In this document: positions 3,299-60,709 of the stretch, one piece after another
Layout: each line of letters opens with the position of its first letter
Numbering within the stretch: position 1 is the first letter of the stretch
Source of the DNA: an uncultured Phycisphaerales bacterium
GTDB taxonomy: Bacteria > Planctomycetota > Phycisphaerae > Tepidisphaerales > Tepidisphaeraceae
Direction: 5' to 3'
Assembly: GCA_963791055.1 (NCBI GenBank)
Contig: CAWBQI010000003.1
Span: 804,570-868,569 of the forward strand
Length of the DNA: 64,000 nt
Made by a program: the position numbers and the translations under genes
Notes under the pieces: generated by a model
What the model was told of the DNA's origin: nothing
Seen by the model: only the letters and a program-made list of their open reading frames with translations
Databases searched by the model: none

Positions 3299-3661
3299 TC
3301 ACATATCCTCAAGATTCCTGACGATCTGGCTCCCATCCTGCAACTGAGAAAAATCCGGCGGCTTCTCCGGTGGCGGCATAGCCGACTGCTTTGCCTCTCG
3401 ATGAAATCGGATCGCCAACCGAAGGAAATAACCGCCCAGAACCAACAGTGCCATGGAACAAAACAGATACAGAATCGCGACGAACACACCCCGGAGATTA
3501 ACCGGCGCCGGCCACCGACGAAACGCGTCAAAGACCAGCTCCGCCGCCCCCACAACGCAACCGCCCAACGCGATCACACAATACGACCGGCTGCGAATCG
3601 CGCCGCGGCGCAATGACGCCATCTGGCTGATGCGGTTGGAGTTGAGATGGTCATCTGACAT
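3299..3661 (-). CDS. hypothetical small membrane protein
   Basis: 120-aa ORF with two predicted TM segments. No recognizable family. Confidence 0.35.
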   Translation of the reverse strand: MSDDHLNSNRISQMASLRRGAIRSRSYCVIALGGCVVGAAELVFDAFRRWPAPVNLRGVFVAILYLFCSMALLVLGGYFLRLAIRFHREAKQSAMPPPEKPPDFSQLQDGSQIVRNLEDM

Positions 3662-3673
3662 CGAGCAAGAATT

Positions 3674-3709
3674 GAAATTTCAAATCTCAAATTTCAAATC
3701 TCAAATTTT
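3674..3709 (-). repeat. AT-rich heptanucleotide tandem array (AAATTTGAGATTTGA units on the minus strand) 12 nt after the sucD stop
   Basis: Read directly: gaaatttcaaatctcaaatttcaaatctcaaatttt. The same array and spacing recur at 27504-27547 and a related one at 60710-60770. Confidence 0.8.
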
Positions 3710-3721
3710 GACCCTCCACCC

Positions 3722-4627
3722 TCACCCACCCACTCCCAGCACCTTCGCCATCGTCTGCCCAATCGTCGCCGGACTATCGGCCACCGAGATATTCGCCGCC
3801 TTGAGCGCCGCAATTTTAGATTCCGCCGTCCCCTCGCCTCCGCTGATGATCGCACCGGCATGCCCCATCCGCCGCCCAGGCGGCGCCGTTCGCCCTGCGA
3901 TGAAAGCAACCACCGGCTTCTTTACATTTTTCTTGACGAACACCGCCGCCCCTTCCTCGTCGGTGCCGCCGATCTCGCCGATCAGAATGATCCCATCCGT
4001 CTGCCCATCTTTGGCAAAAAGATCAAGCAATTCGATGAAATTAAGCCCCTTGACCGGATCGCCCCCGATCCCCACGCACGTCGTCTGACCGATCCCCCGC
4101 GTGCTGCATTGCCAGACCGCTTCGTACGTCAGCGTCCCGCTCCGGCTGATGATCCCCACCTTCTTCCCGCTCTTGGCTTCCCCCGGCGGAGTATGAATAT
4201 ACCCCGGCATGATCCCGATCTTGCACTCCCCCACCGTGATGATCCCCGGACAATTCGGCCCAATCAAAACCGATTTCGGCTTATCCTTCAGATACGCCTT
4301 CACCCCGATCATATCCAGAACCGGAATCCCCTCGGTAATCGCCACAATCCCCGCGATCCCCGCATCAGCCGCCTCCATGATCGCATCCGCCGCGAACGGC
4401 GGCGGAACAAAAATCATCGTCGCATCCGCCCCCGTCGCATCGACCGCCTGCCGAACCGTATCAAACACCGGCAACCCATTGGCATCCTTCGTCCCCCCCT
4501 TGCCGGGAGTGACGCCGCCGACCATCTTCGTTCCATAATCCAGGCATCCCTTGGTGTGAAACGCACCAGCCGCGCCAGTGATCCCCTGACAGATGACCTT
4601 CGTTTTGGCGTTAACCAGAATACTCAT
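3722..4627 (-). CDS. sucD: succinyl-CoA synthetase alpha subunit
   Basis: Full-length match to SucD hallmarks (CoA-binding Rossmann fold, GxxGxxG, phospho-His loop region GHAGA). 301 aa. No sucC adjacent. Confidence 0.95.
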
Positions 4628-7546: not shown

Positions 7547-8443
7547 ATGGATCGGATTTGGGCGGCAATCCTTTTGATCTTACTGCTGGCGCCCTCGGCC
7601 ATTGCAGATGAATCCACAACCCGGCCAATGCCCGGGGTCGCCTTGGAGCAAGATGTCCAAACCGATCCGCCGATGCGGTTTTACGTTGTAACCGTGGATT
7701 TGACGAATCCGAGGATTCATTTGAAGGTTTCACGGGCCGGCGATTGGCAGCATTTGCCGCCGCCTTGGGAAGTGAAGTTGATGCCCATCAGTGAGATGGC
7801 CCAGCGCGACGGCTTCAGCGTGGCGGTAAATGGGAATCTGTTCGAATGCAGGCTTTCAGCAACGATTCTGGGCGTGAAATTCCCATATTTTTGGGGAAAC
7901 TGGGCGCGGACCAGCGGATGGGCGATGAGCGATGGACTCCTGTTTTCAGGGTCGCCGGCGGATATGAGCTGGCCAAGCCTGATTGTGAACGATCGGGGAG
8001 AGGTGAACATCGGCCGGTTGGAACGGATTCCATTGGACGCCCGGCAGATCGTTTCGGGGATTTGGCAGATCGTCACCAATGGCCTGGACACCGTCGGCGG
8101 CGATGCGGGCCGCTCCGGCGAGCTCGCCCCCCACGCCGCGGTGGGAATCAATAGGGACGGGAAAACGCTCCTGTTTTTCGTCGTCGATGGAAGACGGCCG
8201 GCATATTCAGTCGGGATGAGCTGGCATCAGATCGCCCGCGAAATGATCGCCCGGGGAGCGTGGAACGCATTGTTATTGGACGGCGGCGGCAGCACGACGC
8301 TGGTTATGCGGAACCAACGGGGAAAGGCCGATGTTGTTAACCTGCCCAGCGATGGGCACGATCTTCCAGGTGCGCCGTCGATCCAGCGCTGCGTCGCCGA
8401 TGCGCTGGGGGTCGTTATCGACGGCGTGACAACTCAACCGTGA
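7547..8443 (+). CDS. phosphodiester glycosidase family protein (NAGPA uncovering-enzyme-like, DUF2233), secreted
   Basis: Signal peptide MDRIWAAILLILLLAPSAIA. LLDGGGSTTL motif and overall length typical of the phosphodiester glycosidase domain. Confidence 0.65.
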   Translation: MDRIWAAILLILLLAPSAIADESTTRPMPGVALEQDVQTDPPMRFYVVTVDLTNPRIHLKVSRAGDWQHLPPPWEVKLMPISEMAQRDGFSVAVNGNLFECRLSATILGVKFPYFWGNWARTSGWAMSDGLLFSGSPADMSWPSLIVNDRGEVNIGRLERIPLDARQIVSGIWQIVTNGLDTVGGDAGRSGELAPHAAVGINRDGKTLLFFVVDGRRPAYSVGMSWHQIAREMIARGAWNALLLDGGGSTTLVMRNQRGKADVVNLPSDGHDLPGAPSIQRCVADALGVVIDGVTTQP

Positions 8444-9576
8444 GCATTGAACCAGATATCCAGCCCGGACCCGAAGTTTCGGTGATCGTTCCCACGATCA
8501 ACGAGTCGGAGAATCTCCCGGCCCTGTTGGAGCGAATCAGCGCGGCATTGTCCGGCGTGGATTTCGAAGTCCTGATCGTCGACGACAACAGCAAGGACGC
8601 AACGCCCGCGGTGTGTGCCGAACTGGCCAAGCGATATCCCCTGAAACTGATGGTGCGCACGCAACCAACCAACGGCCTAAGCGGCGCCGTTCTTCACGGC
8701 ATGGCCGCCGCGCGGGGGAAATTTCTTTGCGTCATGGATGCCGACCTGCAGCACCCGCCGGAAAAACTCCCGGAATTGCTTCACCCGCTGCGCAGCGGCG
8801 AAGCGGATTTTGTGCTGGGCTCGCGCTACATGCCTGGAGGAAGCACCGATGGCGAATGGGGACTATTGCGAAAAATCAATTCACAAGCCGCGACCCTGCT
8901 GGCGCGCCCGTTCGCCGGCAACGCGACCGATCCAATGGCCGGTTTTTTCGCGCTCAGGCGGGAGACATATCAGGGGGCCAGGAACCTTACGCCGCTAGGC
9001 TACAAAATCGCTCTGGAGTTGATGTGCAAATGCCGGGTGCAAAACGTCCGGGAGATACCCATTCACTTCGGTATGCGGCTCAAGGGCCAGTCCAAGCTTA
9101 CGCTGAAACAACAGTTTCGATACCTCGAACATCTCAGCCGATTATACGATTTCACGTTTCCCCGCGCTTCGCCCGTAGTGAAGTTTCTAATCGCCACCGG
9201 AGCAAGCTGGCTGGCCGGTCTGGCGGCATTTTTGTTGTCGGTTCATGCCGGATTGGGATCGATCCAATCCATTGCTATTGCGTATGCGCCAGCGCTCTTG
9301 GTGACGGCGATCTTCCACATCCGCTACGTCCGGACCCAGCGCGAATTTCTACCCCGGCAAACTCCCTGGCTGGATTTCACAGTGATCGCGGCCGCCGAGT
9401 GGATCGCGGCGATTCTCGTCGCTTGCTGGGTGAGCGCGCGAATGTTTCAACCCGGAATTATCGAGACTTTCGCTATCTGTTTCGGATTCGCGACCGTCAC
9501 GCGCTATATATTGCGGAAGGAATTCCTGCAGGACATCAGAGGGCTTCGCAAGGAGTTGCCGAGGGAAACGAAGTGA
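8440..9576 (+). CDS. GT2 polyprenyl-phosphate mannose/glycose synthase (Dpm1-like) fused to a C-terminal GtrA-like 4-TM domain
   Basis: VSVIVPTINESENL, DDNSKD and MDADLQHPP (DXD) motifs. C-terminal four TM helices. GTGA start/stop overlap with the upstream gene. Confidence 0.85.
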   Translation: MSIEPDIQPGPEVSVIVPTINESENLPALLERISAALSGVDFEVLIVDDNSKDATPAVCAELAKRYPLKLMVRTQPTNGLSGAVLHGMAAARGKFLCVMDADLQHPPEKLPELLHPLRSGEADFVLGSRYMPGGSTDGEWGLLRKINSQAATLLARPFAGNATDPMAGFFALRRETYQGARNLTPLGYKIALELMCKCRVQNVREIPIHFGMRLKGQSKLTLKQQFRYLEHLSRLYDFTFPRASPVVKFLIATGASWLAGLAAFLLSVHAGLGSIQSIAIAYAPALLVTAIFHIRYVRTQREFLPRQTPWLDFTVIAAAEWIAAILVACWVSARMFQPGIIETFAICFGFATVTRYILRKEFLQDIRGLRKELPRETK

Positions 9577-9670: not shown

Positions 9671-9945
9671 CCAAATGCAAAGCGGGGGAGGCGGGAGACA
9701 ACCCATACGGCCCCAAGGTTTTTCTCCCGCCTCCCCCGCACCCCCTCCACCCTCTTTCCGCTTCCCCCCAACCGTCCAGTAGAGGAAGAAAGCAAAGAGA
9801 ATTGTGGACATGAATCGTCCTCTTTTTTTCTCTCGGGGGGATGGTTGAGGGGAAAAGGAAAAAGGTGGGGTAGGTGCGGGAGGGGCGGGAAAAAACTTTT
9901 GGGGCCGTATATGGTTTTTCCCGCCCCTCCCGCATTGCATTTCGT
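9671..9945. repeat. about 275-bp inverted duplication (two about 115-nt arms, about 85% complementary, 40-nt spacer); each arm holds its own perfect 15-17 bp hairpin; sits between convergent genes
   Basis: The reverse complement of 9830-9945 aligns base-by-base with 9671-9785. The inner hairpins are gcgggggaggcgggaga...tctcccgcctcccccgc (9682-9739) and gcgggaggggcggga...tcccgcccctcccgc (9866-9931). Confidence 0.85.
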
Positions 9946-11532: not shown

Positions 11533-11868
11533 TCACCTATCGGCCATGGCGGTGGTTGCTCTTCGATTACGGGGTGTTCGACGTGTTTATCGGACGTGAG
11601 TAATGTCTATACTTTGGGCCAACCGCGGCTTCGACATACAAAAGAGCCGTATCGTTGCGATCTTCACGCCGTCCACGATCGTTTGCTCGAATACGCGAAG
11701 GCGCCGGCGCCGCGGACATCGCTGGCTGGCCTGCTGAGATTCGCGGCCACCTTATGCAACAAGGCGAAAGAGAAGTCGCCGCGTTCCGCGGGCAAACATG
11801 TCGGAGTTTCGAGCGCATGCTCGACCCTGTATGTTCCCATTCCGAGCCTTTTCAGCGATCCCCTCCCG

Positions 11869-12165
11869 CTGGAGACTCCCGGCGAGGTCGGACAAGCGGG
11901 GCTGGGCGGACGGTTGAGGTCGGCCCGTGGCCGAAACTCCCCAGCAATTGCCGCCGAAGGCGGCGACTCGTCCGCCTCGCTGCAGAAGGTTGTCGCGATT
12001 CCCTATCAGGCCAGCCAGCGGTGTTCGCAGCGCCAGGGCTTCAACGTATTCGAGCAAACCACGCTGGACGGCACGGAAGACATTAACGATAAAAATGTTT
12101 TCTGTATTTCGAATCCGGACACGCGGAATGCTCTGCTGGGAAGAGAAATTGAATCAAACAGTCCC
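11869..12165 (+). repeat. dispersed intergenic repeat family, full-length copy A (S module + R module)
   Basis: Nucleotide-level alignment with 38164-38480 (copy B) and with partial copies at 31106-31290, 36880-37112 and 46228-46400. Hairpins show compensatory changes. Confidence 0.8.
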
Positions 12166-12924
12166 GTTACCGGCCACGGGGTTCACCGCCGCTGGCAACC
12201 CCTGCGTGAAATCTTTCCGGCGCATCATCCAGGGGAGCGCCAGCAAGACCATGATGACCATCGCACAGAGAAACATGATCGGCACCCGCCACGGCCAGGG
12301 GCCCAGGTTGTCTATGGGCGAATGCGGGCCTTGGTAAGATTTGCCGACATACCCGTAGTTAAGATGAAAAATCGCGTCAACGGGGAAAATGATTGCCACA
12401 TAACAGATGGAGAATTTCACCGCGAAAAGCCAATCTCCCCAGTGTGGGCGGAAACCTCGGGCGCTGATGTCGTAGATCGCCGGGCCGATGATCGCCGCAT
12501 GACCCGCCCAGAAAACCCAGAACTGGAAATCCGCCGGTCCGAAATGAAGGTCGGGATAGACAAAGCTCAATGAGGAGAGGCCCAGCCCCCAGAAATAAGT
12601 CATGGCCCGCGCCCACCGCCAGCGAAACAAAAGCGCCGCCGGCGCGATGAACATCATCAGGTCGCAAATGTGCAGCGGCAGCGAGGTGTCGTACTCAAAT
12701 CGCGACGGCCAGAGCGTGGCAATCTGCACGAAACACGCCGCCGCCAGGGCGAACCAGCCGAGGGTTCTATCGCAAAAACGTCGTCGAGGCCCCACGGTGG
12801 CGACATCGTCGCACCGCCGAAGGGACACAATGGCGACCACCAGCAGCCCGAAAGCAAGCACGACAAAAAGATGCGTCAGGCTAAAGGGCTCGAAATGGTG
12901 CTGCCAGGAATGATCGCTGCTCAT
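12154..12924 (-). CDS. polytopic integral membrane protein (possibly TIGR02206/YwaF-like)
   Basis: 256 aa with about 7 predicted TM helices. The family assignment is only a recollection-level guess. Confidence 0.55.
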   Translation of the reverse strand: MSSDHSWQHHFEPFSLTHLFVVLAFGLLVVAIVSLRRCDDVATVGPRRRFCDRTLGWFALAAACFVQIATLWPSRFEYDTSLPLHICDLMMFIAPAALLFRWRWARAMTYFWGLGLSSLSFVYPDLHFGPADFQFWVFWAGHAAIIGPAIYDISARGFRPHWGDWLFAVKFSICYVAIIFPVDAIFHLNYGYVGKSYQGPHSPIDNLGPWPWRVPIMFLCAMVIMVLLALPWMMRRKDFTQGLPAAVNPVAGNGTV

Positions 12925-12987
12925 TCCAGTTCATTCTACGGAGGCGGGGGCATTGCTGAGAACGGTGAATCCGCGCGGAATTTGCGT

Positions 12988-13194
12988 TCAGATGTATCGA
13001 TCGACGTTTTCGCCCTTGCCCGGCTCAGAGGCCGCGGAGGTCGAAGGTTGATCCTGCTGCTGTTCCTGCTTGATCTCCGCGACGGCGGCTTGATCGCCTT
13101 CCTGGGCGCGTTGCTCCACCGTTTTCTCCACGTTCGATTGAGCCGCGGATGTTCCGAGCGCATTGGCCGAATTGCTGATGCCGGTGATCGACAT
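12988..13194 (-). CDS. small hypothetical protein, weak resemblance to the YjfB putative motility protein family
   Basis: 68 aa. M-I-x-I-S start, Q/E-rich middle, G-x-N-V/I-D-x-Y/I-I end. Low confidence. Confidence 0.3.
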   Translation of the reverse strand: MSITGISNSANALGTSAAQSNVEKTVEQRAQEGDQAAVAEIKQEQQQDQPSTSAASEPGKGENVDRYI

Positions 13195-13316: not shown

Positions 13317-14461
13317 CTAACCAACCGTGGCGCGTAATTGTTCGGCGACGTAGCGGACCTGCTCTTCGGGAAGCTCGGGATACACCGGCAATGCCAGCAC
13401 CTCATTGCAGGCCCGCTCGGTGATTGGAAAATCTCCGGCACGGTAGCCAAGATCGGCGAAACATTCCTGCAAATGCAGCGGCAGCGGATAGTAAATCGCC
13501 GAGCCGATTCCTTTTTCCTGCAGGACTTTCTTGACCCGATCGCGATCGGGGACACGCACGATGTATTGGTTGTAAATGCTCCAGTTGCCCGGATCGATTT
13601 TCGGCGTGACCACTTTGCTTCCGGCCAAAAGCCGATCGTACAGCGCGGCGTTGCGGCGGCGGCCTTCGTGCCAGGTCTCAAGATATTTCAATTTGACGTT
13701 CAGCACCGCCGCCTGAACAGCCGCGATCCGGAACATTCCGCCGACATACTTGTGAAAGTATTGATGCCCCGAGCCGTGCACGCGCATCAGCCGGCAGATT
13801 TCGGCGAAGGAATCGTCATTCGTGCAGATCGCCCCGGCATCGCCGAACGAGCCGAGATTCTTCGTCGGATAAAAGCTGAGGCACCCGGCAAAGACGGTGG
13901 AACACGCCCGCTTGCCGTGCCGGCGGGCGCCGATCGACTGGGCGGCATCCTCGATCACCTTCAAATCGTGCTTGGCCGCGATCTCGTTAATGGTTTCGAG
14001 ATTCGCCAGTTGCCCAAACAGGTCGACCGGAATAATCGCCCGGGTTTTGGCCGTGATTTTCGAGGCGAGCTTGGCAGGATCGATATTGAACGTCGCCGGT
14101 TCGATCTCCGCGAAAACTATTTTCCGCCCACCCGGGCGATTGCCCCGGCCGTCGCGAAAAAAGTGAAGCTCGGGCAGATGACCTCATCCCCCGGCTTGAT
14201 GCCCAAAGCCATCAGCGAGCAGAGCAGCGCGTCACTCCCGCTGCTGACGCCGATGGCGTGCTTGACGCCGCAATACTCGGCCAGATTTTTCTCGAATTTC
14301 TCAACATGCGGCCCGAGGACCAGCGATTGCTGATCGAACACTTCATCCAACGCCCGGCGGACTTCCTCCCGGATCGGGCCATACTGCGCCTGCAAATCCA
14401 ACAGCTTCACGTTCATGCGGAAAAGATTAAGGCGAAGGCGTTGATTTTGCCATAGGCGCAC
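13317..14461 (-). pseudogene. DegT/DnrJ/EryC1/StrS family PLP-dependent aminotransferase interrupted by a 1-nt frameshift in an A4 tract (complement of 14120-14123)
   Basis: The N-terminal 114 aa (14117-14461) end ...AIARVGGK*. The protein continues IVFAEIEPATFNIDP... in the -1 frame with no stop until 13317. A single extra A would restore a roughly 380-aa enzyme. Confidence 0.8.
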
Positions 14462-16625
14462 GGCCGCACCATGCTCGCCACATCCGCCGGTAGGCGGCCT
14501 CGACGTCCGCGGCGAAATGCTTCTGATCCATCAGTGGTGAGCGGCGCATCCGTTCGCGAAGGTTATGGCGCAGTTCATTGAGCCGATCCACGCTTTTGGC
14601 CAGTTCAACGGCAACCCGCACATATTGCCGCGGGCTGTCCGCAATGAGTTCCCGCAACCCGACGTTGGACATCAGGCTGACGCCGACGCGCGACACGTGC
14701 GTTTTGCCTGCGAGCGTCACAACCGGAACACCCATCCAAAGGGTCTCGCAGGTCGTGGTTGTTCCGTGATATGGGAACGTGTCCAGGGCGATATGGATTT
14801 TTCGGTAGGATGCGAGATGTTCTTCTCGCGGGCGCCATCCCTGCAATTCGACCCGATCCGACGAAACGTCCCGGGCTTCGAGGATTTGTCGCACCCGTTG
14901 TTGCACGGCCGGGCACCCCAATGCTTTTGCTTTGATGAACAACCGCGATCCCGGCGTTGACCGGAGCACTTCGGCCCACAACTCCAGCATCGGCGCGGTG
15001 ACCTTTGAGAAATTGTTGAAGCTGCCAAAGATGATTGAGGTCTCGCTATCCAGTCGTCCATCATCGAGCGGAATGTTTTCATCGGGCTCCTGATAGCACC
15101 AGGCCGTTGGAGACAGATGAATCAACTGTTCGCTGCCCGGCGAATTGCCGGATTCGAGCGGGTCGGCCAATGCGTCCGACAGGCGATAATCAATCGCGAC
15201 AACGCCCGTCGTGTCCGGGTAACCCAAGCAGGTAGCTTGAACAGGCGCGGGCTTACGCGCAAAAACAAGCAGCCGATTGCCGCCGGTGTGGCCGGCAAGG
15301 TCGATGAGGATGTCGATCCGGTCCTGGCGGATCTGCTCTGCCGCTTGCTGGTCGGTCAGGCCCACGATGTCGCGCCATTGATGTGCGAGGCCGCGGACTC
15401 GATCGGTGATCGCATCCGGGCGCGCGACTTGAGCATAGCAAAAAGTCTCGACCTGACCGCGATCGTGTGCGTTCAGCAAAGGCAGGAGGAAACGGCCGAC
15501 AGGATGCTCGCGAAAGTCGGCCGAGACGTATCCGATTCTTAACCGTCGATCGGGCGAGCAATCATTGGTATGCGGTGCGGCCAGGCGATGCAGCGGATCG
15601 GCGTGCCTGATTCCCCACTGAACGCTTTCGGCGATGATGATCCCCGGATCGGATTGCTCGTGGTAATGCAGGATGAGGAGGAGATTGCTGTGAAACATTT
15701 CGGAATCCGGGTCCAGCGCGACCGCCTGGCGGCAAGACGCGATGGCCTCGCCAATCCGTCCCATGTCCTTGAGAATCACGCCAAGATTGTTGTGGGCCTC
15801 GGCAAAGTCGGGCTTGAGCGTAATGGCCTGAAGGCAGGCTGCACGCGCGTCTTCAAGTTGCCCCGAATCGCATAGCGCGCGGCCGAGGTTGTTGTAGACC
15901 TTGGCATAGTCCGGCCTCAGTCGCAGGACCTGGCGATAAGCGAGGATCGCTTCATCGACCAAGCCTTTGTCCAGGAGCGCATTCCCCAGGTTGCTATGAG
16001 CTTCCGCCATGTTCGGCTTGAACCGCGCGGCCTGTCGGAAGGCGGCGATCGCCTCATCCAACCACCCCTTGTCGCGCAGGGCGTTCCCCAGGTTATTGTG
16101 TGCTTCGGCGAAGGCGGGCTTCAGCTTCAGCGCCTGACGACAGGCGGCAATTGCTTCGTCCAAGTCTCCCCTGTCGCGCAGCGCGTTGCCCAGATTGTTG
16201 TGAGCCTCCGCATAACCGGGCTGGAGCAGGATGGCCTGACGGCAGGCGGCGATCGACTCATCCAGCAACCCATTCCCGCGCAGCGCGTAGCCCAGATTGT
16301 TGTGGTATGTGGCGTTGGCGGGGTTGATCGCAATGGCTCGCCGGAGCATTTCCACGGCCGTGTCCCATTGCCCGCACTGCGCGGCAATTGCGCCGAGGAG
16401 ATGAAGGGCGGTTTCGTGATCCGGCTGTTGGCTCAGCACCTGCCGATAGATTTCCTGGGCCCGGTCGAGCCTTCCGGTCTGATGGTGTTGGAGGGCGAGT
16501 TGCATCGCCTGGTCAATCGAGCCTTGCGTCATCCTCATCGATCTCACTTTTGGAGAATGCGCAAGTATAACGACCGGCGGCGCCGAATGTCTTTCATTGC
16601 GTTGTCCAAGTCCGCCGCCAATCAA
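14427..16625 (-). CDS. TPR-repeat protein fused to a GT41 glycosyltransferase domain (O-GlcNAc transferase / SPINDLY-like, COG3914)
   Basis: About 9 TPR units (AxxNLGxALxxxGxxDEAIAAYRQA repeats), followed by a C-terminal roughly 380-aa domain with the OGT-like pattern RIGYVSADFREHPVG...IDILIDLAGHT...FGSFNNFSKV... Confidence 0.85.
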   Translation of the reverse strand: MIGGGLGQRNERHSAPPVVILAHSPKVRSMRMTQGSIDQAMQLALQHHQTGRLDRAQEIYRQVLSQQPDHETALHLLGAIAAQCGQWDTAVEMLRRAIAINPANATYHNNLGYALRGNGLLDESIAACRQAILLQPGYAEAHNNLGNALRDRGDLDEAIAACRQALKLKPAFAEAHNNLGNALRDKGWLDEAIAAFRQAARFKPNMAEAHSNLGNALLDKGLVDEAILAYRQVLRLRPDYAKVYNNLGRALCDSGQLEDARAACLQAITLKPDFAEAHNNLGVILKDMGRIGEAIASCRQAVALDPDSEMFHSNLLLILHYHEQSDPGIIIAESVQWGIRHADPLHRLAAPHTNDCSPDRRLRIGYVSADFREHPVGRFLLPLLNAHDRGQVETFCYAQVARPDAITDRVRGLAHQWRDIVGLTDQQAAEQIRQDRIDILIDLAGHTGGNRLLVFARKPAPVQATCLGYPDTTGVVAIDYRLSDALADPLESGNSPGSEQLIHLSPTAWCYQEPDENIPLDDGRLDSETSIIFGSFNNFSKVTAPMLELWAEVLRSTPGSRLFIKAKALGCPAVQQRVRQILEARDVSSDRVELQGWRPREEHLASYRKIHIALDTFPYHGTTTTCETLWMGVPVVTLAGKTHVSRVGVSLMSNVGLRELIADSPRQYVRVAVELAKSVDRLNELRHNLRERMRRSPLMDQKHFAADVEAAYRRMWRAWCGRAPMAKSTPSP

Positions 16626-27402: not shown

Positions 27403-27408
27403 CGCCGA

Positions 27409-27470
27409 TTTATTTCCCCTCCCCTGGTCTTCCGCTAGTTTCCGCAGGATGGGTGGGGGTCTTTTTTTCG
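27409..27470 (+). terminator. terminator-like C-run/G-run hairpin + T7 (member of a repeated element, see 29565-29630)
   Basis: tttcccctcccctggt...gggtgggggtctttttttcggg sits directly after the stop at 27402. Confidence 0.55.
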
Positions 27471-27503
27471 GGCGTCTCGGCCCGTCAACGATGCAGCGTT
27501 ACT

Positions 27504-27547
27504 TTCAAATTTGAAATCTCAAATCTCAAATTTCAAATCTCAAATTT
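27504..27547 (-). repeat. AT-rich heptanucleotide tandem array 12 nt after the stop of the GT3-like pseudogene
   Basis: aaatttgagatttgaaatttgagatttgagatttcaaatttgaaa on the minus strand. Identical spacing to the sucD copy. Confidence 0.8.
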
Positions 27548-27559
27548 CCGCTTTTTCCC

Positions 27560-29363
27560 TCACGCGATTTGCTTCAGCCGTTGCGCCCGGCTCGCCCGCT
27601 TGATCCCCGGAATCACATAATCCCGCGCGACCACATCCCAGCTCATTTTGCTGGCCAGGGCGTGTCCACGGTCGATGAATTCGTCAAAATCCTTGGGCGA
27701 TCGCGGAAGACGGTCCACCAATTCCTGCGCGACGACTCCCGAAACGTTGTGTTCGATCTCATCCCGCTGCGGCTGGCCGATGGCCATCAACTGCTCGGGC
27801 CGCAGGCCCTTGTTGGGCAGTTCGGTGTAGTCGGCGACGATGACATTCGGCGAGGGTTTTCCGTCCGCCGGCCTTGTCGACAAACCCATCGCATCCGCAC
27901 ACGTTGCTGAACACGCAGATCCCGCCGAAGCTGATCGGCTCCACCTGCGCGATGCCGAACGGCTCGTAAATGCTCTGCCCGAATTCCGCATCCGAACCTT
28001 TGCGGATGATCCATGAATTCCATGTCGGCCGGCATGCGCATGTCCGCAGACTTTTTGCTCGAATCCAAACTGGTTGATGAAAACCACTTTCACATTGCGC
28101 GCTCGGGCGTTGAATTCCTGAACGCCCTGGTAATACGCCGCCTCTCCGTTGGAAAGATCGGGCAGGCCCTCGCGATGAACGACGGGCCAGTGGTAATGCT
28201 GTTCCATCCTTCGGATGTCGTCGCCGCGCCGCGACGGGAACTTCGGTGCTGAGCGTGAACAGCACCGCCGTCTCATTGCGGTCGCGAAAATGCGCTCGAC
28301 ATGCTCCAGAACCCGCAGGTCCCGCCACAGTCCCTTGCTGGGAACCAGCCGGGTGACGTGGGAAAAAACATAATCCGGCTCATATCCTAGAAGCGTATTG
28401 CAATATGCCCGCAATTTTTGCCGGCTCGCCATTCGCTCCTGCGACGCTGATCTTCCAGCACGGAACGCCGTTGTAGGCGATCTGACTGTCGACGTGCACG
28501 AAAATCCGGGCCGAGGAAGCGGATTTCCTTCAGCACATAATCGCCGACCGCGAAGATTCCATCGCAGAATCGGGACGCCTTGACCAGCGCGTGCTTGTAA
28601 TATCCGCTCTGATCGCCGAACACGTCTTCGAGATAATGTCCCTGACTGATGGCCGAGCGCATGACGTTGTAGAACATCGTGTCGTGCCCCGGACTGATGC
28701 TCGACGATGCGCCGCATCGGCGCGACTTCATGGGCGTAAAAGATCGTGCGGAAATTGCTGCGTTCCCCTTCAAGGATCGCCGCCAGGCACGTCGGCATGC
28801 CCATGTATTCATGGCTCAGGATCACGCACGGCTCAACGTCGCTGCCCGCGCCCAGCGCGTGCAGCGCCGCGATGGCCGGCCTCGCCAGGCGCATGTATTG
28901 CTCGATAATCCCAGATATTTTCGTATTTCGAGCTTTCGATCCCAAAGTTCTTCCAAAGATCGATATTTGAACAGGTTGATCTTCTGCGCGTCGAAGCGGG
29001 CGACGTCGATCAGCAGCGTTTCCGGCGTGCTGGTGATCGCCCGTTTCCTTGTCAACGAATTTCCGCCGGCCATAGACGATCGCGACGTCGAACTCCTGCT
29101 CGATCTCGCGGAACCGGCTCGCCAGCGGCGAGCGGTACAGATGATCCAGGCTGCTATACAGCACCTCGCCCTGCGGCCCGAGCCGATGCTCGGCGATGTC
29201 GTCGCTCGGCCAGAACGGACCCACCAAAATATTTCGCGGGACATTGATCGAGATATGTGCGGCTGGTCAGCAGCCCATGCAAAACCGCCCCAATTCCACC
29301 GATTTTCTGAATAGCTTCATGCGTTACGTGCACCACTGTCTGCATAGCGCAAATCCTCTCCAA
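27560..29363 (-). pseudogene. GT3-like (eukaryotic-type glycogen synthase-like) alpha-glucan glycosyltransferase, degraded by 6 or more frameshifts
   Basis: Protein-like segments alternate among all three minus-strand frames: N-terminus MQTVVHVTHEAIQKIGGIGAVLHGLL, then RNILVGPFWP, then GT E-x7-E-type motif EFGQSIYEPFGIAQVEPISFGG, then a credible C-terminus. Confidence 0.6.
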
Positions 29364-29533: not shown

Positions 29534-29641
29534 CAAAGGGTAATCGCATGTAGCCATTGTTCCATTTCTTTCCCCTCCCCTGGTACTCCGGGGGAGGGTT
29601 AGGGTGGGGGTCTTCTTTTTTTCCGGGCTACATGCGATTGC
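29534..29641 (+). promoter_or_regulatory. candidate cis-regulatory RNA element: perfect 15-bp inverted repeat (caatcgcatgtagcc/ggctacatgcgattg) enclosing a terminator-like hairpin + T-run, about 270 nt upstream of the MFS transporter
   Basis: Read directly. The inner element (29565-29630) is a paralog of 27409-27470. Confidence 0.35.
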
Positions 29642-29905: not shown

Positions 29906-31105
29906 ATGGAGTTGCCCGTGTCCGATGCCATCGTGTTGAATCCAGGAATCGACTCACCCGCCAAACGATTCCTGTTCAAAGCCTATGCCCTCGAAGCCTT
30001 AGGCTCCGTGGGCGCCAACCTGCTGATGTTCGGCATCTTTTTCTACATGCAAAAACGCTTCGGCTGGGGAGCGAGCAAAAACCTCCCCCTCTCTTCCGCT
30101 CAGGGAGCCGTTTATGTGATCGGCGCGCTGGCCTCCAATCCGCTCTCGCGATGGATCGACCGGCAAAAACTGCTCCGCCTGATCCATGTCGCCATGGCGG
30201 CTATCGCACTTGTGGGCGCTTGCATGGCGACGCCGGCCGTGATCGTCCTGCTCCTGCTGGGATACACCATGCTGAGCGCCGCCCAGTGGCCTCTGCTGGA
30301 AAGCCTCATTTCCACCGGCGCGAACGCGAAAAAGCTGTCGCGGAGAATCTCGATCTACAACCTGGTCTGGTCCGGCAGCGGCGCGATCACGGTGGCCGCA
30401 TGCGGGGTGGTGATCGCCCATTATCCGCAGGGCATCTTTTGGGTCACCTTCGGCGTTCACTTGATCGCAGCGTTCATGCTGGCAAAAATTCGGCCGCAAT
30501 CTCAATCTCCATCGGCCGCCCATCTTCATCCAGAGCCGGAGCTGATTCCCCTTCGCACCATGGCCAAGCGCCTCTCGCGCATCGTTCTACCGGCCACGTT
30601 CGCCGTGATCTACGCCCTAGGTGCGATCATGCCAACGCTTGCGGTTATTCAATCGACGGCACCCGCCGCCCGAACATTGCTCGCCAGTGTCTGGATGATC
30701 GCGCGATGGATTTTCTTCGTTTTCTTGGGCGCGACAATCTGGTGGCACACCCGCCCCCGCGCCCTGCTCATCGCCGCGATAATCCTGTTCGCCGCATTCC
30801 TCGGCATCACCCTGATCCCCTCAGTGCCTTCCATGATTCTCTGGCAAATCGCCCTCGGCATCGCCATGGGCCTGATCTATTCAGCCAGCCTCTATTTCGG
30901 CATGGTCCTCAGCGACGGCAGCACCGCGCAGAACTCATACCACGAAGCCCTGATCGGATTAGGCAGCATTCTGGGCCCCGGCTGCGGCGCAATCGCCGGC
31001 CAACTTCGCCCGGGCGATCCTCACGCAGCGATCATCGCCGTCGCCGCGATTCTCTGGATCAGCGTCATGGCGGCATGTGTCGTATCGGTGCAATCGAAAC
31101 GGTGA
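29906..31105 (+). CDS. MFS transporter
   Basis: 12 predicted TM helices with typical MFS loop motifs. The start was moved to the internal ATG (29906). Confidence 0.8.
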   Translation: MELPVSDAIVLNPGIDSPAKRFLFKAYALEALGSVGANLLMFGIFFYMQKRFGWGASKNLPLSSAQGAVYVIGALASNPLSRWIDRQKLLRLIHVAMAAIALVGACMATPAVIVLLLLGYTMLSAAQWPLLESLISTGANAKKLSRRISIYNLVWSGSGAITVAACGVVIAHYPQGIFWVTFGVHLIAAFMLAKIRPQSQSPSAAHLHPEPELIPLRTMAKRLSRIVLPATFAVIYALGAIMPTLAVIQSTAPAARTLLASVWMIARWIFFVFLGATIWWHTRPRALLIAAIILFAAFLGITLIPSVPSMILWQIALGIAMGLIYSASLYFGMVLSDGSTAQNSYHEALIGLGSILGPGCGAIAGQLRPGDPHAAIIAVAAILWISVMAACVVSVQSKR

Positions 31106-31290
31106 TCTGTTCCGCCTTAGCTTCCTCGCAGAAGGACGCCACGAACATCAACGGGCCGGCAAGCAGGTTTCGAAGCGCCAGTGCGTTCCAGTATTCGAGC
31201 AAGCGAAGCTGGACGGCACAAGCAGCGCAACGATAATCATCTTCCGTTATTTCGCGGCAGCCGCCTCAGCCGGTTTGAATGGTTCGCAAA
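31106..31290 (+). repeat. dispersed repeat family, partial copy C (3' R module), starting at the MFS stop codon
   Basis: Aligns to copy A from ...tccgcctcgctgcagaagg through gtattcgagc...ctggacggcac...aacgataa. Confidence 0.75.
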
Positions 31291-31315
31291 TATCTTCGGG
31301 CGAGATCTATCGCTG

Positions 31316-33552
31316 TCACGTCGAAATTCGCGCAGCAGGTTTTGCCGCCGACAACGGTTCCCCGTTCCCACCCTTTTCCTCCAACATTTCGATCACCTGT
31401 TTGGACATTTTGTCCGCCAATTCCTTCAGCGAAGCCATATCCGGATTCTCCGTGACAGCAAACCCGCTCTTTTCCGCGACCAGGAGCGCCAGTAGCGTGC
31501 CGAGCATATTGCCCCCCGCCGGCTGACCCTCCGCAGGCGCGCCGCCGGCGTTGAAAACCCTCTCGGGAACGAGCGGTTGCGTGGCCTTGGAGAGATTTTC
31601 CGCCACCTTTGTCAGCGCATACAAACGTGGATCCCCGAAGCTGGTAATGCTGCGCAACAGGACCGTCGCCTCGGCCAGTCCGACCTGCAGCGCCCGGGTC
31701 GATTCACCACGCCCGGCCAGGATGCGCGATTGGCTTTCCGCTTGCGCGGTCACGACGGTTTGCTCCGCCTGCCGCCGCGAACGGGCCAGTTCTGCCTCCG
31801 CGACCACCACCGTCTGCTCGGCCTGTTTACGCGAGCGCGAAAGATCGGCATCTCCCTGGTTCTCCGCGATGCGGATCTGCACCTGCGAGTTGGTCAATTC
31901 CGCCTGCTTGGCCGCCACGGCCTGCGCTTCGGTCAGCGACCGCAATTTTTCCGCCGCCGCCCGCTGCCGGTCGTACGTTTCCAGTTGCTCGATGCTCAAT
32001 TGCCGCATCCGGAGCTGTTCGAGCAACGTTTCGATCTTGCCCGAGCCGGTCCCCTCGGCCGTATCCGGCTTTCCGATCAGCACATCCACACATTCGATAT
32101 CGAATTCATGGAAGCGCCGCTGCAACTCGTTGCGCGATTCAATCTGAATATCATCCCGATGCTGCAAAAGCTCGAGCATTGTCTTTTTGTGGGCCACGTC
32201 CCGGAAATAAGCGCTGAGCATCGGGTCCAGCGTCTGCGTGATGAGCTTCTTCACGTCCCCGAAGCGCTGAATGACGTTGGGCGCGCGCTGATAATCGATA
32301 TGAACGACAATGCTCAACGGCAAGAGCGGCTCATACGCATCCTTGGTAACCAGATCGATGCTGCGGAGACTTTCATCATAATGGTGGCTTTCGCTCTTTC
32401 CCGTAATCCAATGCAGGACGAAATTGGTCGTGGGAACAAGAATGAGTTTTCCCGCATAGCTGTTGAACGGATATTTGCCCGGCCCCAGGGCCTTTTCCCA
32501 CACACCCCGCTCGCCGCGGGCAACGCGTTCGCCATGGCGGAAACCTTCCCCCGAGACATCCGCCCCCATCGGTCCGTAATAACTGACGACGACCCCAACA
32601 TACCCGATCGGCACGACCGTCTTGGCGATGATCTCAATCGTCGCGAACCACCGGTTGATGAAATACGTCCCATCGGTGAGCGGCACATATTGCCGCCCGC
32701 GACGCCCACCCGGCGCAAGAAAGCTTCCGGGTCCTGGAAATTGTTGTGATAGTTTGGATCAACGCTGTCGTTCCCAACCGCCGGAGCGATGATTTCACCC
32801 GGCGCCAGGCTCGGCCCATCGTGAACGGTAACGATCCCAATACTATCGACGAGCATCGTCTTGCCCGGAGTAAGCTGATCCTCCGCGGAAACCGGCGCGC
32901 CGATAACAACCGGATCAAATCCGCCGATATCGTTCAGTTCCTTTTGCCATCCAACGATCGTGGCCAGTTCCTGCCGTCCGGTCATTTCCAGCCGATAAAC
33001 GCAATCCTGCGTGACAACGACGAACAGAGCGAGATTGATTGCATACACGCCTTCACGCAGGATAACGCGTTGCCGCCCGCGCTGCCCGATGGCCGCTTGC
33101 GGAGAATTCGAATCACCCAGAAATTTCCGCGCATCCTGAAAATGATTGCAGTCCACAACCCGCCCCAGCGTCTGGCTCGGCGGCAACGGCTCCCCATCCC
33201 GCGCATACGCATACCCAATCTTCCCCTGCGGCACGATCACCAGCGAGACCTTATGAATCCGATATTGCCACGGCCAATAGAAAAGATGAATACCGCCGCG
33301 AAGCAGATCAGCCTGATAACCCGCTTGGCCATCAAGGGCAATGATTCGGCCGTCTTTGACAGATCCCTTACTGGACCATTTCTTTTCGATGATTCCAACG
33401 CAGTTGTTGGGAATGGATAGGGCGACGAGTATGTAGATAACGATGAGCGCCCTGACTGCGCCGACAACCCACCAAACCACTGGCGGAATAGACAAAGTTC
33501 CGGGCATATCCGCCAGAACATGCGCGGACGACAATAGGCAAAATGCCGTCAT
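31316..33552 (-). CDS. SPFH/band-7 (flotillin/YqiK-like) protein with N-terminal TM and extra N-terminal domain; apparent frameshift near 32700-32715
   Basis: The 31316-32686 frame carries the SPFH core (LVTKDAYEPLLPLSIVVHIDY...) and flotillin-type EA-repeat coiled coil. The N-terminal TM and domain lie in the 32314-33690 frame. The frames join around DPEAFL/GRQYVPLTDGTYFINRW. Confidence 0.7.
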
Positions 33553-35407: not shown

Positions 35408-35730
35408 AAGAACCTCCGCAAAATTAGAGCATCTCCTCTATTTATGGGTCCACCGGGTGAAAGTTTTGGACGCATTTTCTCCAATCACGTTTCTCAATTG
35501 TTCATTCCTCAACAAACAAATTCAGCCGCCAGCGGCTAAATCCTCAAAAAGCGCATCAAAGCGCCTCAAGGCGCATCATCGCAAACGGACCGCGCGAACT
35601 TCAACAGGCCAGAAACTATGAAGCCGAGCCTTTCTCGGGACGTTGTTTTGGGGATTAAAATCCCCAATGGATTAACGAGCTGATCGCGTGGATCGCTCAG
35701 ACGTCACTTTATTTGAGAAAGGACTCGGCG
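35408..35730 (+). ncRNA. non-coding left flank of the IS110-family transposase; candidate bridge/guide RNA region
   Basis: 323 nt without a credible ORF directly upstream of an IS110-family transposase. Position is analogous to the left-end ncRNA of IS110-group elements. No structure was verified. Confidence 0.25.
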
Positions 35731-36900
35731 ATGAAGATTCTGGCATTGGATCTCGGAAAGAACAAGAGCGTTTTTGTGGACTATTGTGTCGGCGGCGAGC
35801 GGATCTTCGGCAAGACCGCCACGAACCCCCGCGAATTGCGGAAGCTGCTGGAACGCAGTGCCCCGGACCGGCTGGTGATCGAGGCGGGACCCGCGGCGGG
35901 ATGGGTTTGCGACCTGGCCGAATCGATGAAGATTCCCGTGCAGGTCGCCAACGGCAACGACGAACGTTGGCGATGGAAGGTCGTGAAGGAAAAGAGCGAT
36001 CGCAAGGATGCGTTGAAACTGGCCCAATTGTCGGAGATGGAATCGTTGCCGACGGTGCACGTGCCCAAGGCTTCGGTTCGGCAATGGCGGTCGCTGATTG
36101 AATACCGTCACGCTCTGGTGCAGCGGCGAACGGCGATCAAGAACTCGATCCGTTCGATATACGAAAGGCAGGGCGTGGGCCTGCCCTGGGCCAAAAGAGC
36201 CTGGACTGACGCGGCGATGGAGGAACTGAAGAAGGAGGCGTCGGACTATTCCTCCCAGCGGTTGTGGCTGTTCCAGGTGCATTGCGAGTTGCAGCAGTTT
36301 GAGAGTATTCAGCGGCAGATCCAGGAGGTGGAGCAGAAGCTGGAAGAACGGGCAAAGGCTGATGCGCGTGTTGAACAACTCAAGACCGCGCCCTGCGTCG
36401 GTCCGCGATTGGGAGAGACGGTGGTGGCAATCCTGGATGATCCGCATCGCTTCGGGAACGGCCGGCAGGTGGGTTGTTACGCGGGTCTGACCCCGCGACG
36501 CTGGCAGAGCGGCGAAAGTGACCGCCAAGGTCACATCAGCCATGCGGGCAACGGCCTGCTGCGTCAAATGCTGGTGGAGATTGCCTGGCTGGGAGTCCGC
36601 CACAAGACTTGGATGGCCCAAGTCTACGAACAGGTGCGTCGCGGCAGCGACAAACGGAAGAAGATCGCCATCGTGGCGGTGGCCCGCAGACTCCTGGTGA
36701 AGCTGTGGGCGATGCTTCGGGATGGCACCCAGTGGAAAGAACCGTTGCCGACGGCGCCAACGTGAAGAGACGGGGCAAAATGACGGGTAAAGCGTCCGGA
36801 TGAGTCAAATGGGAAACAGGCGATCGGAGTTCGACGGTTGGCAAAAAAGCGGCAAGCCCGATGTTGGCTTGAGCACCAAACTCGAAGGCCAGAGTGGGTG
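35420..36900 (+). mobile_element. IS110-family insertion sequence (boundaries approximate)
   Basis: Contains the IS110/IS116/IS902-type transposase. The right side abuts repeat copy E and the disrupted 3' end of tatC. No inverted repeats were found, as is typical for IS110. Confidence 0.55.
35731..36765 (+). CDS. IS110 family transposase (DEDD RuvC-like N-domain + C-terminal Tnp domain)
   Basis: MKILALDLGKNKSV N-terminus, ...YAGLTPRRWQSGESDRQGHISHAGNGLLRQMLVEIAW C-terminal signature. Confidence 0.9.
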   Translation: MKILALDLGKNKSVFVDYCVGGERIFGKTATNPRELRKLLERSAPDRLVIEAGPAAGWVCDLAESMKIPVQVANGNDERWRWKVVKEKSDRKDALKLAQLSEMESLPTVHVPKASVRQWRSLIEYRHALVQRRTAIKNSIRSIYERQGVGLPWAKRAWTDAAMEELKKEASDYSSQRLWLFQVHCELQQFESIQRQIQEVEQKLEERAKADARVEQLKTAPCVGPRLGETVVAILDDPHRFGNGRQVGCYAGLTPRRWQSGESDRQGHISHAGNGLLRQMLVEIAWLGVRHKTWMAQVYEQVRRGSDKRKKIAIVAVARRLLVKLWAMLRDGTQWKEPLPTAPT

Positions 36901-37112
36901 CCGCTGTTGTACAGTTGAATAGGCCCGCGACCCAAACAGATCTTTCGCGGAAGCTCTGAATAGAAGACTGAAACAACGACTCGCGTTCCGAACGCCAGAA
37001 TCCCGCTTGACAAGGCTCGGCTCATAGAAGCCAGCACTGTTCGCAGCGCCAACGCCCGCCCGCATTCGAGCCGCCGATGCACCGACGGCAAGAAAAGCGC
37101 AACGATAAAACT
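36880..37112 (+). repeat. dispersed repeat family, partial copy E, between the IS110 transposase stop and the tatC stop
   Basis: ...cgactcgcgttccgaacgccagaa...tgttcgcagcgccaacgc...cattcgagcc...cgacggcaag...caacgataaaactcttt aligns to copies A, C and D. Confidence 0.75.
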
Positions 37113-37114
37113 CT

Positions 37115-38076
37115 TTACCCACGGCTTTCGCGGGACCTTGTCCCCATCTTCGCCAGAAAATCCCCAGTTCGTAAAGCAAAATCAGCGGCACCAGCAGCGC
37201 GATCGTCGCAGTAACAACGTCCCCCGGCGCTAGCCCCGCCGCAACCATGGACAACCCCAGATAAACATACCGACGCCAATGTTGAAACGTCGCGATTTCC
37301 ACCAGCCCGATTCGCGCCAAAGCCATGACCACGATCGGCAATTGAAACGCCAATCCGAATGTCAGCAGGAGTTGCAAAACCAGATCGAGATAGTCCGGCA
37401 GGGTAAACGAAGTCGCCAGTAAGCTGTCCGGCCCGAAGGGAACCACGCGGACATTTCCCCCCACGAAGATTTTCAGCCGGCGCTGCAGGGTATCGAACCA
37501 CATCTGGAACTCCGCCGGATGCGCGGGATTGCCGGGCACCGCCTGGACAAACGTCGGCTGCGTGGTGGACGCGGCTTTGGCCGGATCGACGACGGAAGGA
37601 AGCTGCAGCGGAAAATCCGCCGTGAAGCCGATAAAGAATTGCAGCGAAAACGGCAGGACCACGTAGTAGACGAAAATCATCCCGCAGAGCATCAGGACGA
37701 TGCTGAGCGGAATATATTTCGTGACATACTTCCGCTCTTTTGGATAGAGGCCGGCGCTGATGAACTTCCAAAGCTGGTAAACGATCCACGGCCCCGCCAC
37801 CGCGATGGCCGCGATCAGGCTGACCTTCATGTAAACCATGAAGGCATCGGAGATCTGCACCGAAGAAAGCTGCGGATTGACGTCATATCGCTGCTCGGCC
37901 CTGAGCAGCGGCCGGCACAAAAACCCCAAAATTTGACGGCCAAAGAGAAGGCAGACCAGAACAGCCGGGACCAATCCGATGATTCCCAGCAGAATTCTTC
38001 GCCGCAGTTCCTCCAGATGGTCGCCGATGGACATCTGAAAGTCGTCGGGATTGAAATCCTGCCGGCTCGAAGCCAT
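37115..38076 (-). CDS. tatC: twin-arginine translocase subunit TatC (with about 70-aa periplasmic insertion); probable 1-nt indel near 37160
   Basis: HLEELRRRIL N-terminal motif and 6 TM. The ORF-track frame (to 36805) reads through repeat copy E with junk-like composition. A +2 frame gives a credible end ...LYELGIFLAKMGTRSRESRG* at 37115. Confidence 0.65.
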
Positions 38077-38163: not shown

Positions 38164-38480
38164 GTGATTCCCCGCGGAGGTCGGACAAGCGGGCGTGACT
38201 TCGGACGGTTGAGGTCGAACTCGAGTTCGAAACTCCTTCGCACCTGCCGCCGCAGGCGGAAACTCATTGCTCCGCCGCAGATGGCCGTTCCGACCTTTAT
38301 CAGGCCGGCCAGGTGCGCTCGCAGCGTCAACCCATTTACGGATTCGAGTTAGGGAACGCCCGTCGGCACGAAAACCATAACCGATCAAGCAATTTCGCTT
38401 TTTGATTTTGCTTTCGACGAATGACATTCCGAAAAATGCGGTGTGAGGATTTCAGCAGGGAAGCAGCTTGATTCGTCCCT
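38164..38480 (+). repeat. dispersed repeat family, full-length copy B, upstream of tatC
   Basis: aggtcggacaagcggg, cggacggttgaggtcg, cgaaactcc, tgccgccg.aggcgg blocks, then the R module (ttcgag...cggcacgaaa...aaccgatcaa). Confidence 0.8.
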
Positions 38481-46226: not shown

Positions 46227-46227
46227 C

Positions 46228-60647: not shown

Positions 60648-60709
60648 GATCTGGAATCGAAACAGAAGCCGGTTGGCCAAATTCCAAAAAGGCTATTTCT
60701 GGTTTTTTT

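Follow-up and report, generated by a model that had tools for sequence, protein, structure and literature searches.

A modular, palindromic and non-coding intergenic repeat family in uncultured Tepidisphaeraceae-like Phycisphaerae of peat

The DNA analyzed in this study, hereafter the window, is a stretch of 64,000 nucleotides (nt) from an uncultured Phycisphaerales bacterium of the Tepidisphaeraceae (contig CAWBQI010000003.1 of assembly GCA_963791055.1, positions 804,570 to 868,569). An earlier note on this stretch had described five copies of an intergenic repeat, here named A to E, all on the same strand and with a hairpin preserved by compensatory base changes. Copies were searched by blastn of copy A against the window, and their extents were set by nhmmer with a family model. 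The five + strand copies were recovered roughly at the noted places: blastn of copy A returned B, E, C and D on the + strand, and all five align at the nucleotide level. It also returned a sixth copy, F, at 11626-11826 on the - strand. A 41-nt, 20-position degenerate pattern made from the copy alignment had exactly six matches in the window, at these six copies, versus 0.00 expected from 100 dinucleotide shuffles. Copy F (11636-11826 by nhmmer) lies head to head with A, and the claim of a single strand does not hold. The A/F inverted pair, found by an inverted-repeat search, was 80% complementary over 66 nt. Arm F (-) and arm A (+) make up one imperfect palindrome of ~496 nt at 11623-12118, which was aligned with 12 units of one metagenome-assembled genome (MAG). 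The real unit is this F+A palindrome and not copy A by itself. A and F form a complete unit, B stands alone as a full arm, and C, D and E are solo copies of the outer module. The features of the window are as follows.

11623-12118, no strand assigned: complete palindromic unit consisting of arm F, the centre, arm A and short outer palindromic extensions (CGGCTTCGACATACAAAAGA / TCTGTATTTCGAATCCGG); from inverted repeat, blastn and alignment.
11636-11826, - strand: arm F, model positions 43-230 (nhmmer E = 2e-37), innermost part degenerate.
11810-11823, - strand: hairpin 1 of arm F, CGAGCGCATGCTCG, with a stem allele unlike that of arm A in the same F+A unit; from sequence and alignment.
11879-12107, + strand: arm A, full length, the feature of the earlier note; model positions 3-232 (nhmmer E = 5e-56).
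11921-11933, + strand: hairpin 1 of arm A, CGGCC-CGT-GGCCG, read from the sequence.
11950-11964, + strand: hairpin 2 of arm A, GCCGCC-GAA-GGCGGC, read from the sequence.
31116-31252, + strand: solo outer-module arm C, between convergent genes; model positions 96-233 (nhmmer E = 2e-26).
35576-35612, + strand: left piece of solo outer-module arm D; model positions 103-139 (nhmmer E = 0.01).
35613-37028, + strand: IS110/IS1111-type insertion sequence (IS) of 1416 nt with its transposase at 35713-36765; Pfam PF01548 and PF02371, junctions read.
37029-37119, + strand: right piece of arm D; model positions 138-228 (nhmmer E = 1e-13).
38174-38404, + strand: solo full arm B, between the stop of a PilZ gene and the start of tatC; model positions 5-234 (nhmmer E = 3e-58).
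38216-38229, + strand: hairpin 1 of arm B, CGAAC-TCGA-GTTCG, read from the sequence.
38247-38259, + strand: hairpin 2 of arm B.
46209-46367, + strand: solo arm E, directly 3' of a pstA-like permease gene (Pfam); model positions 72-228 (nhmmer E = 2e-28).

Several borders differ from those given before. The 3' limits of 12165, 38480, 31290 and 46400 were ~40-80 nt beyond detectable similarity. The partial copies had been said to start exactly at stop codons; they start within about 10-20 nt of them, and the final ~18 nt of the open reading frame (ORF) upstream of copy E lie within this copy. The reported contact of D with an IS110 transposase is real, but the IS divides D in two, with the second piece at 35576-35612.

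The relatives compared in this study were MAGs and metagenomes throughout, and the gene maps of their loci were drawn by longest-ORF heuristics. A scan of species-representative genomes with the window pattern gave mostly chance matches, together with 13 loci from one MAG (Tepidisphaeraceae SPRUCE 577) and 2 from a Phycisphaerales MAG. In the SPRUCE 577 MAG, the copies were nearly always inverted pairs (- then +) of 440-500 nt from end to end. A metagenome scan with the inner blocks AGGTCGGACA..GGACGGTTGAGG identified at least 120 loci, nearly all in JGI records, and the JGI accession series of the loci listed recur among peat and bog samples. Given that the metagenome loci were selected by an inner-module pattern, outer-only forms are under-sampled. 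Plasmid, phage and viral collections gave no match. In peat, uncultured Tepidisphaeraceae-like Phycisphaerae carry the family in abundance. By its TMEM164 and TatC homologues, the organism of the window is related to Tepidisphaeraceae.

A family hidden Markov model run over 136 loci gave at least 258 arm matches, of which at least 185 were full length, and at least 105 inverted pairs. The complete unit is ~470-500 nt long and comprises two inverted arms, each of ~230 nt, around a centre of ~40 nt; among the inverted pairs listed, the centre gap was mostly 37-45 nt. The mean identity among 170 non-redundant arms (among the matches listed) was 63%. The arms nevertheless have near-invariant blocks in common: GAGGTCGGACAAG, GGACGGTTGAGGTCG, CGAAACTCC, GGGCCAGCCA, TTCGCAGCG, TATTCGAG, TCGGCACG, and AACCGATAA. 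Each arm is made of an inner module (GGAGGTCGGACAAG..GGACGGTTGAGGTCG, hairpin 1, CGAAACTCC, and hairpin 2) and an outer module (GCAGAAGG..GGGCCAGCCA..TTCGCAGCG..TATTCGAG..TCGGCACG..AACCGATAAAAAT). The arm matches listed included at least 186 full, at least 30 inner-only and at least 25 outer-only forms, and their break points clustered near model positions 44, 69, and 88-100. Moreover, the modules were also found alone, as solo arms, inner-only palindromes and outer-only palindromes.

Both hairpins were found at the noted positions in copies A and B. The compensatory changes, which had been read from these two copies, were upheld in 120 homologous arms, on which the two hairpins were written as 11 pairs and compared with 500 shuffles. 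Paired cells made up 89.9% versus 80.1% in the shuffles, 107 cells were changed on both sides versus 25.8±3.8, and the covariation score was 0.252 versus 0.086; none of the 500 shuffles reached the observed value for any of the three measures. As a control, the score fell to 0.02-0.06 when the 3' partners were shifted by 1-3 columns. The central pair of hairpin 1 was A:U in 49, C:G in 38 and G:C in 14 of the 120 arms, and at least three stem alleles of this hairpin occur across the family. In hairpin 2, the pairs at alignment columns 78:90 and 82:86 covary. The top pairs of alignment-wide mutual information were the Watson-Crick pairs of both hairpins, and among the 237 columns mutual information revealed no other convincing helix, only a doubtful one of 2 bp. 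Outside the two hairpins, the RNAalifold consensus energy was weak (-14.5 kcal/mol for the whole arm and -6.6 / -7.4 kcal/mol for the core). A structured RNA over the whole arm was rejected on the results of RNAalifold and mutual information. The two hairpins, of 5-6 bp each, are structurally selected.

As a single strand, the F+A unit folds at -282 kcal/mol versus -207±7.5 kcal/mol for shuffled sequences (z = -10). The identities between arms, however, were the same within units (68.3%) as between units (68.2%), and different hairpin-1 alleles were usually present within one unit. Solo arms also retain the conserved blocks. Given that the arms of a unit do not evolve together, selection does not act on the giant hairpin, despite its strong fold.

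The arms are constrained where they stand. Allelic pairs of arms that were 90-97% identical had changed at 2 of 390 conserved columns (0.5%) versus 49 of 533 variable columns (9.2%; p = 2e-10). These pairs were taken as allelic because such identities are too high for paralogues. The rates were 1.2% in conserved versus 21.6% in variable columns for pairs that were 84-90% identical, and 3.8% versus 49.5% for orthologous pairs defined by their flanks. About 70 of the 237 arm positions are under selection in place, and the two hairpins resist change as well.

The units also come and go between relatives. Two relatives (L210 and L213) have the same aminotransferase-TMEM164-kinase gene order as the window but lack the F+A unit, and their TMEM164-kinase gaps are 79 and 118 nt versus 621 nt in the window. 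A syntenic relative with 85-88% nucleotide identity, L216, differs from the window at every comparable site. It has an outer-only two-arm palindrome at the site of solo arm B, lacks D as well as the IS in it, and at 12398-13071 has a PIN/PhdYeFM toxin-antitoxin pair where the window has copy C (31095-31361). The intergenic site of copy C is a replacement hot spot. Similarly, L109 has a unit that L168 lacks, and L151 lacks part of an arm that is kept in L162. Locus L146 and the window shared one gene and no further synteny.

One frame on the - sense is open in five window copies, with similar peptides (..AVQRGLLEYVEALALRTPLAGL..), but 1-nt indels between the window copies shift the reading frame, and the MAG copies have a TAG stop inside it. 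The variability by codon position was flat (2.7/3.0/3.4), and the repeat arms had no Pfam match. Of 5.8 billion proteins searched, the only matches were 16 "hypothetical" ORFs from metagenomes, all unnamed, which are translations of other units. A coding remnant was ruled out by the indels, the stops in relatives, the lack of periodicity and the lack of homologues, and the possibility raised earlier that the copies are a gene remnant is not borne out. Two further candidates were rejected: a small ORF with a conserved stop (..CSNT..WLA*), which has no start codon, internal stops in B and frame-shifting indels, and a hammerhead-like reading of ..GAGGUCG-stem-CGAAAC, which lacks the CUGANGA core (judged by eye) and has no Rfam match. 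The Rfam comparison that the earlier note had proposed gave no match in the window at gathering thresholds, and two loci holding four units had only sub-threshold matches to generic miRNA hairpins. The repeat is non-coding.

The units fill intergenic gaps, at a median of 33 nt from the upstream stop codon and 62 nt from the downstream start. Of 63 units, 42 were between co-directional, 15 between divergent and 6 between convergent genes, and no enrichment between convergent genes (6 of 63) was found. Either polarity occurs; the orientation relative to neighbouring genes, for which the earlier note had suggested statistics, is arbitrary. No unit that was scanned had a promoter-like site within it or next to it. 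Terminator-like calls were made at hairpin 2 in some arms only, at a rate near that of shuffles. Functions as a sigma-70 promoter or an intrinsic terminator were rejected on these results.

The insertion point of the window IS in arm D is CAGGCC[AG]CCAGC, and the AG core is present on either side of the IS; the two pieces of D that flank it are contiguous in the family model. Given that the repeat is continuous across the IS and that L216 has no IS, the IS was inserted into copy D, and the repeat is not an IS end. The other five window copies are free of an IS. In another genome, a second IS110-type element (36% protein identity) is delimited by the empty site L077 and the filled site L079; it is inserted in the same block as the window IS, one base away and in the opposite orientation. 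A third IS110-type element, at L184, is in the GCTTGTCCGACC block. At least three different elements of this type, from three genomes, are thus known in conserved blocks of the repeat. Each of the three has a 2-nt core on both sides, and its 3' non-coding region contains 7-9 nt stretches of its own target sequence. In the window IS, this region has the target-identical 7-mers AGGCCAG and AACAGGC. The window IS also has sub-terminal inverted repeats (CTATGAAGCCGAGCC / GGCTCGGCTCATAG) and a CTTGACA ~15 nt from its right tip. Elements of the IS110/IS1111 group are directed by seekRNA or bridge-RNA guides, and IS621 and ISPpu9/10 are found in repetitive extragenic palindromes (REPs; PMC11187229, PMC11208160), which are known targets of the IS110 family (PMC1525189, PMC11208160). 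Judged by sequence, the target-matching segments look like such guides aimed at the repeat family. The repeat itself was rejected as an IS110 end or a bridge RNA by the IS ends at the empty site, by the repeat on both sides of the IS and by the IS-less L216. The interiors of split units contained IS110-type genes or an abortive-infection (Abi) island, and no Y1 gene. The Abi island is a 3-kb, four-gene insert at L125 (8945-12138) and likewise at L207. It includes an AbiJ-type gene (PF18860, PF14355) and sits exactly at the centre of an inner-module-only mini unit, which suggests that these palindromes also receive larger cargo.

The best reading of these results is that the repeat is a mosaic, modular, non-coding palindromic intergenic family that is new but of the same general kind as bacterial interspersed mosaic elements (BIMEs), REPINs and miniature inverted-repeat transposable elements (MITEs). 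Similar to BIMEs, the repeat is extragenic and non-coding, combines small palindromic units with conserved non-palindromic motifs in alternating orientation, is found between co-directional or convergent genes, and varies in architecture from site to site. REPs are targeted by IS110-family elements, as the repeat is here (PMC1525189, PMC11208160). This is a resemblance in organisation and not sequence homology: no sequence relation to BIMEs was found, and the phylum here is Planctomycetota. BIMEs, which occur in E. coli and its relatives, consist of REP units and are bound by IHF, DNA gyrase or Pol I. Different from BIMEs and REPs, whose palindromes are 35 nt, the arms are ~230 nt with two hairpins of 5-6 bp. 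REPs are defined by a GTAG or CGTC tetranucleotide tag at the stem foot (PMC3733652), whereas the hairpin feet in the family consensus are GGTCG/CGAAAC and CATCNG/CGACTC, with no GTAG or CGTC. A REP is also a single imperfect palindrome of ~20-40 bp, whereas the hairpins here are 13-15 nt and occupy <15% of an arm of ~230 nt.

REPINs are REP doublets mobilised by REP-associated tyrosine transposases (RAYTs) (PMC3116915). In a REPIN/RAYT system, the gene of the RAYT, a Y1 transposase, lies in the same genome with repeats on its flanks. Similar to REPINs, the units have two inverted copies with a short spacer, can fold as a hairpin, occur with singletons that resemble remnants of pairs, and persist for long in a lineage. 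However, they are ~5 times longer, their arms do not co-evolve, and with a mean identity of 63% they form no clouds around a master sequence; no RAYT or other linked gene was found at 135 loci with family copies. ERIC, Correia/NEMIS and other MITE-like palindromic repeats have been reviewed (PMC2229807, PMC3184786). These elements share with the repeat an imperfect intergenic palindrome in either orientation in probably transcribed DNA, internal indels that give rise to size classes, and presence or absence between strains. They differ in being 100-160 nt with defined termini and, in Correia, a TA duplication; neither a terminus nor a duplication could be placed here. Divergence among copies is far higher in the repeat, for which there is also direct evidence of in-place purifying selection. 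The inverted arms, the 470-500 nt units and the lack of a conserved ORF are those of a MITE. Like known IS110/IS1111 target sites, the conserved blocks hold three elements with a 2-nt core and 7-9 nt target copies, a likeness that concerns the use of the repeat by another element and not the identity of the repeat itself. The suggestion of an undescribed REP-, BIME- or Correia-like dispersed repeat therefore stands as to class-like behaviour and the lack of a match in Rfam or in the literature searched, and fails for the strict definitions of REP and Correia.

We favour, with moderate confidence, the view that the repeat works like a BIME/REPIN-type element. The element would be a non-autonomous DNA module that is propagated or deleted as a block. 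Its hairpins and flanking blocks would form a recognition surface that is probably read in single-stranded form, either as DNA opened at replication or as co-transcribed RNA. The putative reader would be a trans-acting protein, either an enzyme that mobilises the element or a factor of the host. The multicopy conserved blocks may in addition serve as a safe landing pad for RNA-guided IS110/IS1111 elements.

A number of results weigh against this view. Among the arms listed there were no near-identical paralogues (the 99.5th percentile of pairwise identity was 82%), which is not the pattern of MITEs or REPINs that are still active. In comparisons of filled and empty sites, the flanks were too diverged to locate a sharp terminus or a target-site duplication, and the presence/absence events can be read as gain or as loss. 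No transposase or other gene family was recurrent beside the 135 loci, and no autonomous partner was found; a related autonomous element was likewise not found among the 105 pairs listed and 4 long-gap cases. Moreover, the long conserved non-palindromic blocks are not accounted for by hairpin recognition alone, and purifying selection in place, which is unexpected for purely selfish dead copies, points to a host-level role. Finally, G:U exceeded A:C by 31 to 15 in the arm sense, an excess that is partly an alignment artefact; given that the count is contaminated by alignment shifts, it does not assign the structure to RNA or DNA or to a strand.

A possible, if unlikely, alternative is that each arm is a non-coding RNA gene or a cis-element, that is, a member of a multicopy small RNA family, or an untranslated-region or intercistronic element that controls mRNA ends or decay. 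Selection on hairpins and blocks would then act at the RNA level, and the inverted pairs would be two genes back to back. The covarying hairpins, the purifying selection on blocks in place and the blocks kept in solo arms are consistent with this, as are the location of units ~33 nt past stop codons, the G:U excess, and hairpin 2 itself, which has a T/C-rich tract after it (from centre to outside) and is called terminator-like in some arms. However, only two short helices covary within 230 nt and the RNAalifold energy is weak, the units scanned have no promoter-like site in or beside them, and their orientation to neighbouring genes is arbitrary. The G:U excess is in part an artefact, Rfam gave no match, and arm A of the window has no T tract after hairpin 2.

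It is more doubtful that the arms act as platforms of double-stranded DNA on which a host protein (nucleoid-associated, gyrase/IHF-like or chromosome-organising) would bind independently of orientation, as has been proposed for BIME motifs. Such a platform would agree with the ~11 conserved blocks of 8-15 nt, the direct AGGNCG repeats in the inner module, the constraint in place, and the independence of orientation and of the type of intergenic position. Compensatory changes in the stems, however, require a single-stranded form. In addition, the many different block sequences are unlike a site array for one protein, and a structural site of the chromosome would not be expected to come and go so fast between relatives.

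We regard as equally doubtful that the copies are host-maintained, multicopy functional non-coding modules, in which a fixed scaffold (~70 invariant positions and two hairpins) is interleaved with freely varying segments. Examples would be RNAs with a scaffold and variable segments, or single-strand DNA sites, with a dedicated protein reader. If this were true, the palindromic pairing, the asymmetry of the arms and the flipping centre (both described below) would be parts of an undescribed system of Planctomycetota.

Neutral decay of a purely selfish, mostly dead MITE family, whose blocks would reflect the transposition needs of the last active elements, is improbable. Long inverted arms without coding capacity, presence/absence polymorphism, truncations, and nested or mosaic forms would all be expected of it. 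However, allelic substitutions were ~18-fold rarer in conserved columns, which neutral decay does not predict, and neither a target-site duplication, a parent element nor young near-identical copies were seen.

It is very unlikely that the repeat is an invertible switch, in which a piece of ~100 nt between two GGACGGTTGAGG blocks flips and alters the expression of neighbouring genes. In its favour, complete MAG units are asymmetric, each having one alpha-type and one beta-type arm. Moreover, in the orthologous units L147 and L159, the centre and ~30 nt on each side are inverted while the hairpin-1 alleles are colinear; the centre is 45% identical when colinear versus 79% when inverted. The view of the centre as a neutral, saturated spacer (32% identity) was rejected as an artefact of this inversion, since the identity is 79% once flipped. 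On the other side, the units scanned had no promoter, the 135 loci had no linked invertase gene, near-identical locus pairs were colinear, and most copies in the window are solo arms. Accidental inversion of a small loop flanked by inverted repeats also occurs.

Finally, the idea that the copies are left over from a duplicated protein-coding gene, or are pieces of an IS110 end or a bridge RNA, can be dismissed: the - sense frame open in five window copies with similar peptides is broken by frame-shifting 1-nt indels and by TAG in the MAG copies and has no codon-position signal and no Pfam match or real protein homologue, and the contact of copy D with an IS110-type gene is an insertion, with repeat on both sides of the IS, no IS in L216 and IS ends set by L077/L079.

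To our knowledge, almost no intergenic repeat families have been described in Planctomycetota, and the literature searched contained no account of such repeats in Planctomycetota or Phycisphaerae. The repeat is unusually long and modular, and it pairs fast gain and loss with strong purifying selection in place, which are normally seen apart. It is thus well suited to the question of whether repeats that look selfish may be functions of the host. It also offers three natural examples of RNA-guided IS110/IS1111-type elements aimed at one repeat family, with candidate guides. For annotation, the units cause spurious ORF calls, namely the 16 "hypothetical proteins", and misplace the starts and ends of genes, as for tatC of the window and of L216. 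The spurious proteins (P0001-P0016) are 160-250 aa long and are annotated across whole units in public metagenomes. In the window, tatC (- strand, start 38076) has a T4 run at ~37150 where L216 has T5, and its frame is shifted near the C-terminus, either by a real frameshift or by a homopolymer sequencing error. The window ORF runs on to 36805 through copy D and has 423 aa versus ~320 in relatives. In L216, tatC (8001-9182) is called as 393 aa, with its N-terminus running into the palindrome.

Other repeats were also observed in the window. A second, different intergenic palindrome is at 9673-9942, with arms of 84 nt that are 77% complementary and 102 nt apart, and it is rich in runs of G and of C. 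Its inner ends, CCAACCGTCC ... GGATGGTTGAGG, are similar to the GGACGGTTGAGG block, and by this similarity it may be a distant relative of the repeat's inner module. Runs with a 14-nt period (TTTCAAATCTCAAA) are found at three intergenic sites (3658-3722, 27497-27561, and 60699-60749). At 15709-16325, a 102-nt unit is repeated six times in tandem (62-75% identical) within a long ORF on the - strand (14427-16625), and is probably a 34-residue protein repeat. Finally, a 27-nt motif, ATTT(A/C)TTTCCCCTCCCCTGGT(C/A)(T/C)TCCG, is found by gene borders at 27408-27434 and 29564-29590, ~2.2 kb apart and with 89% identity.

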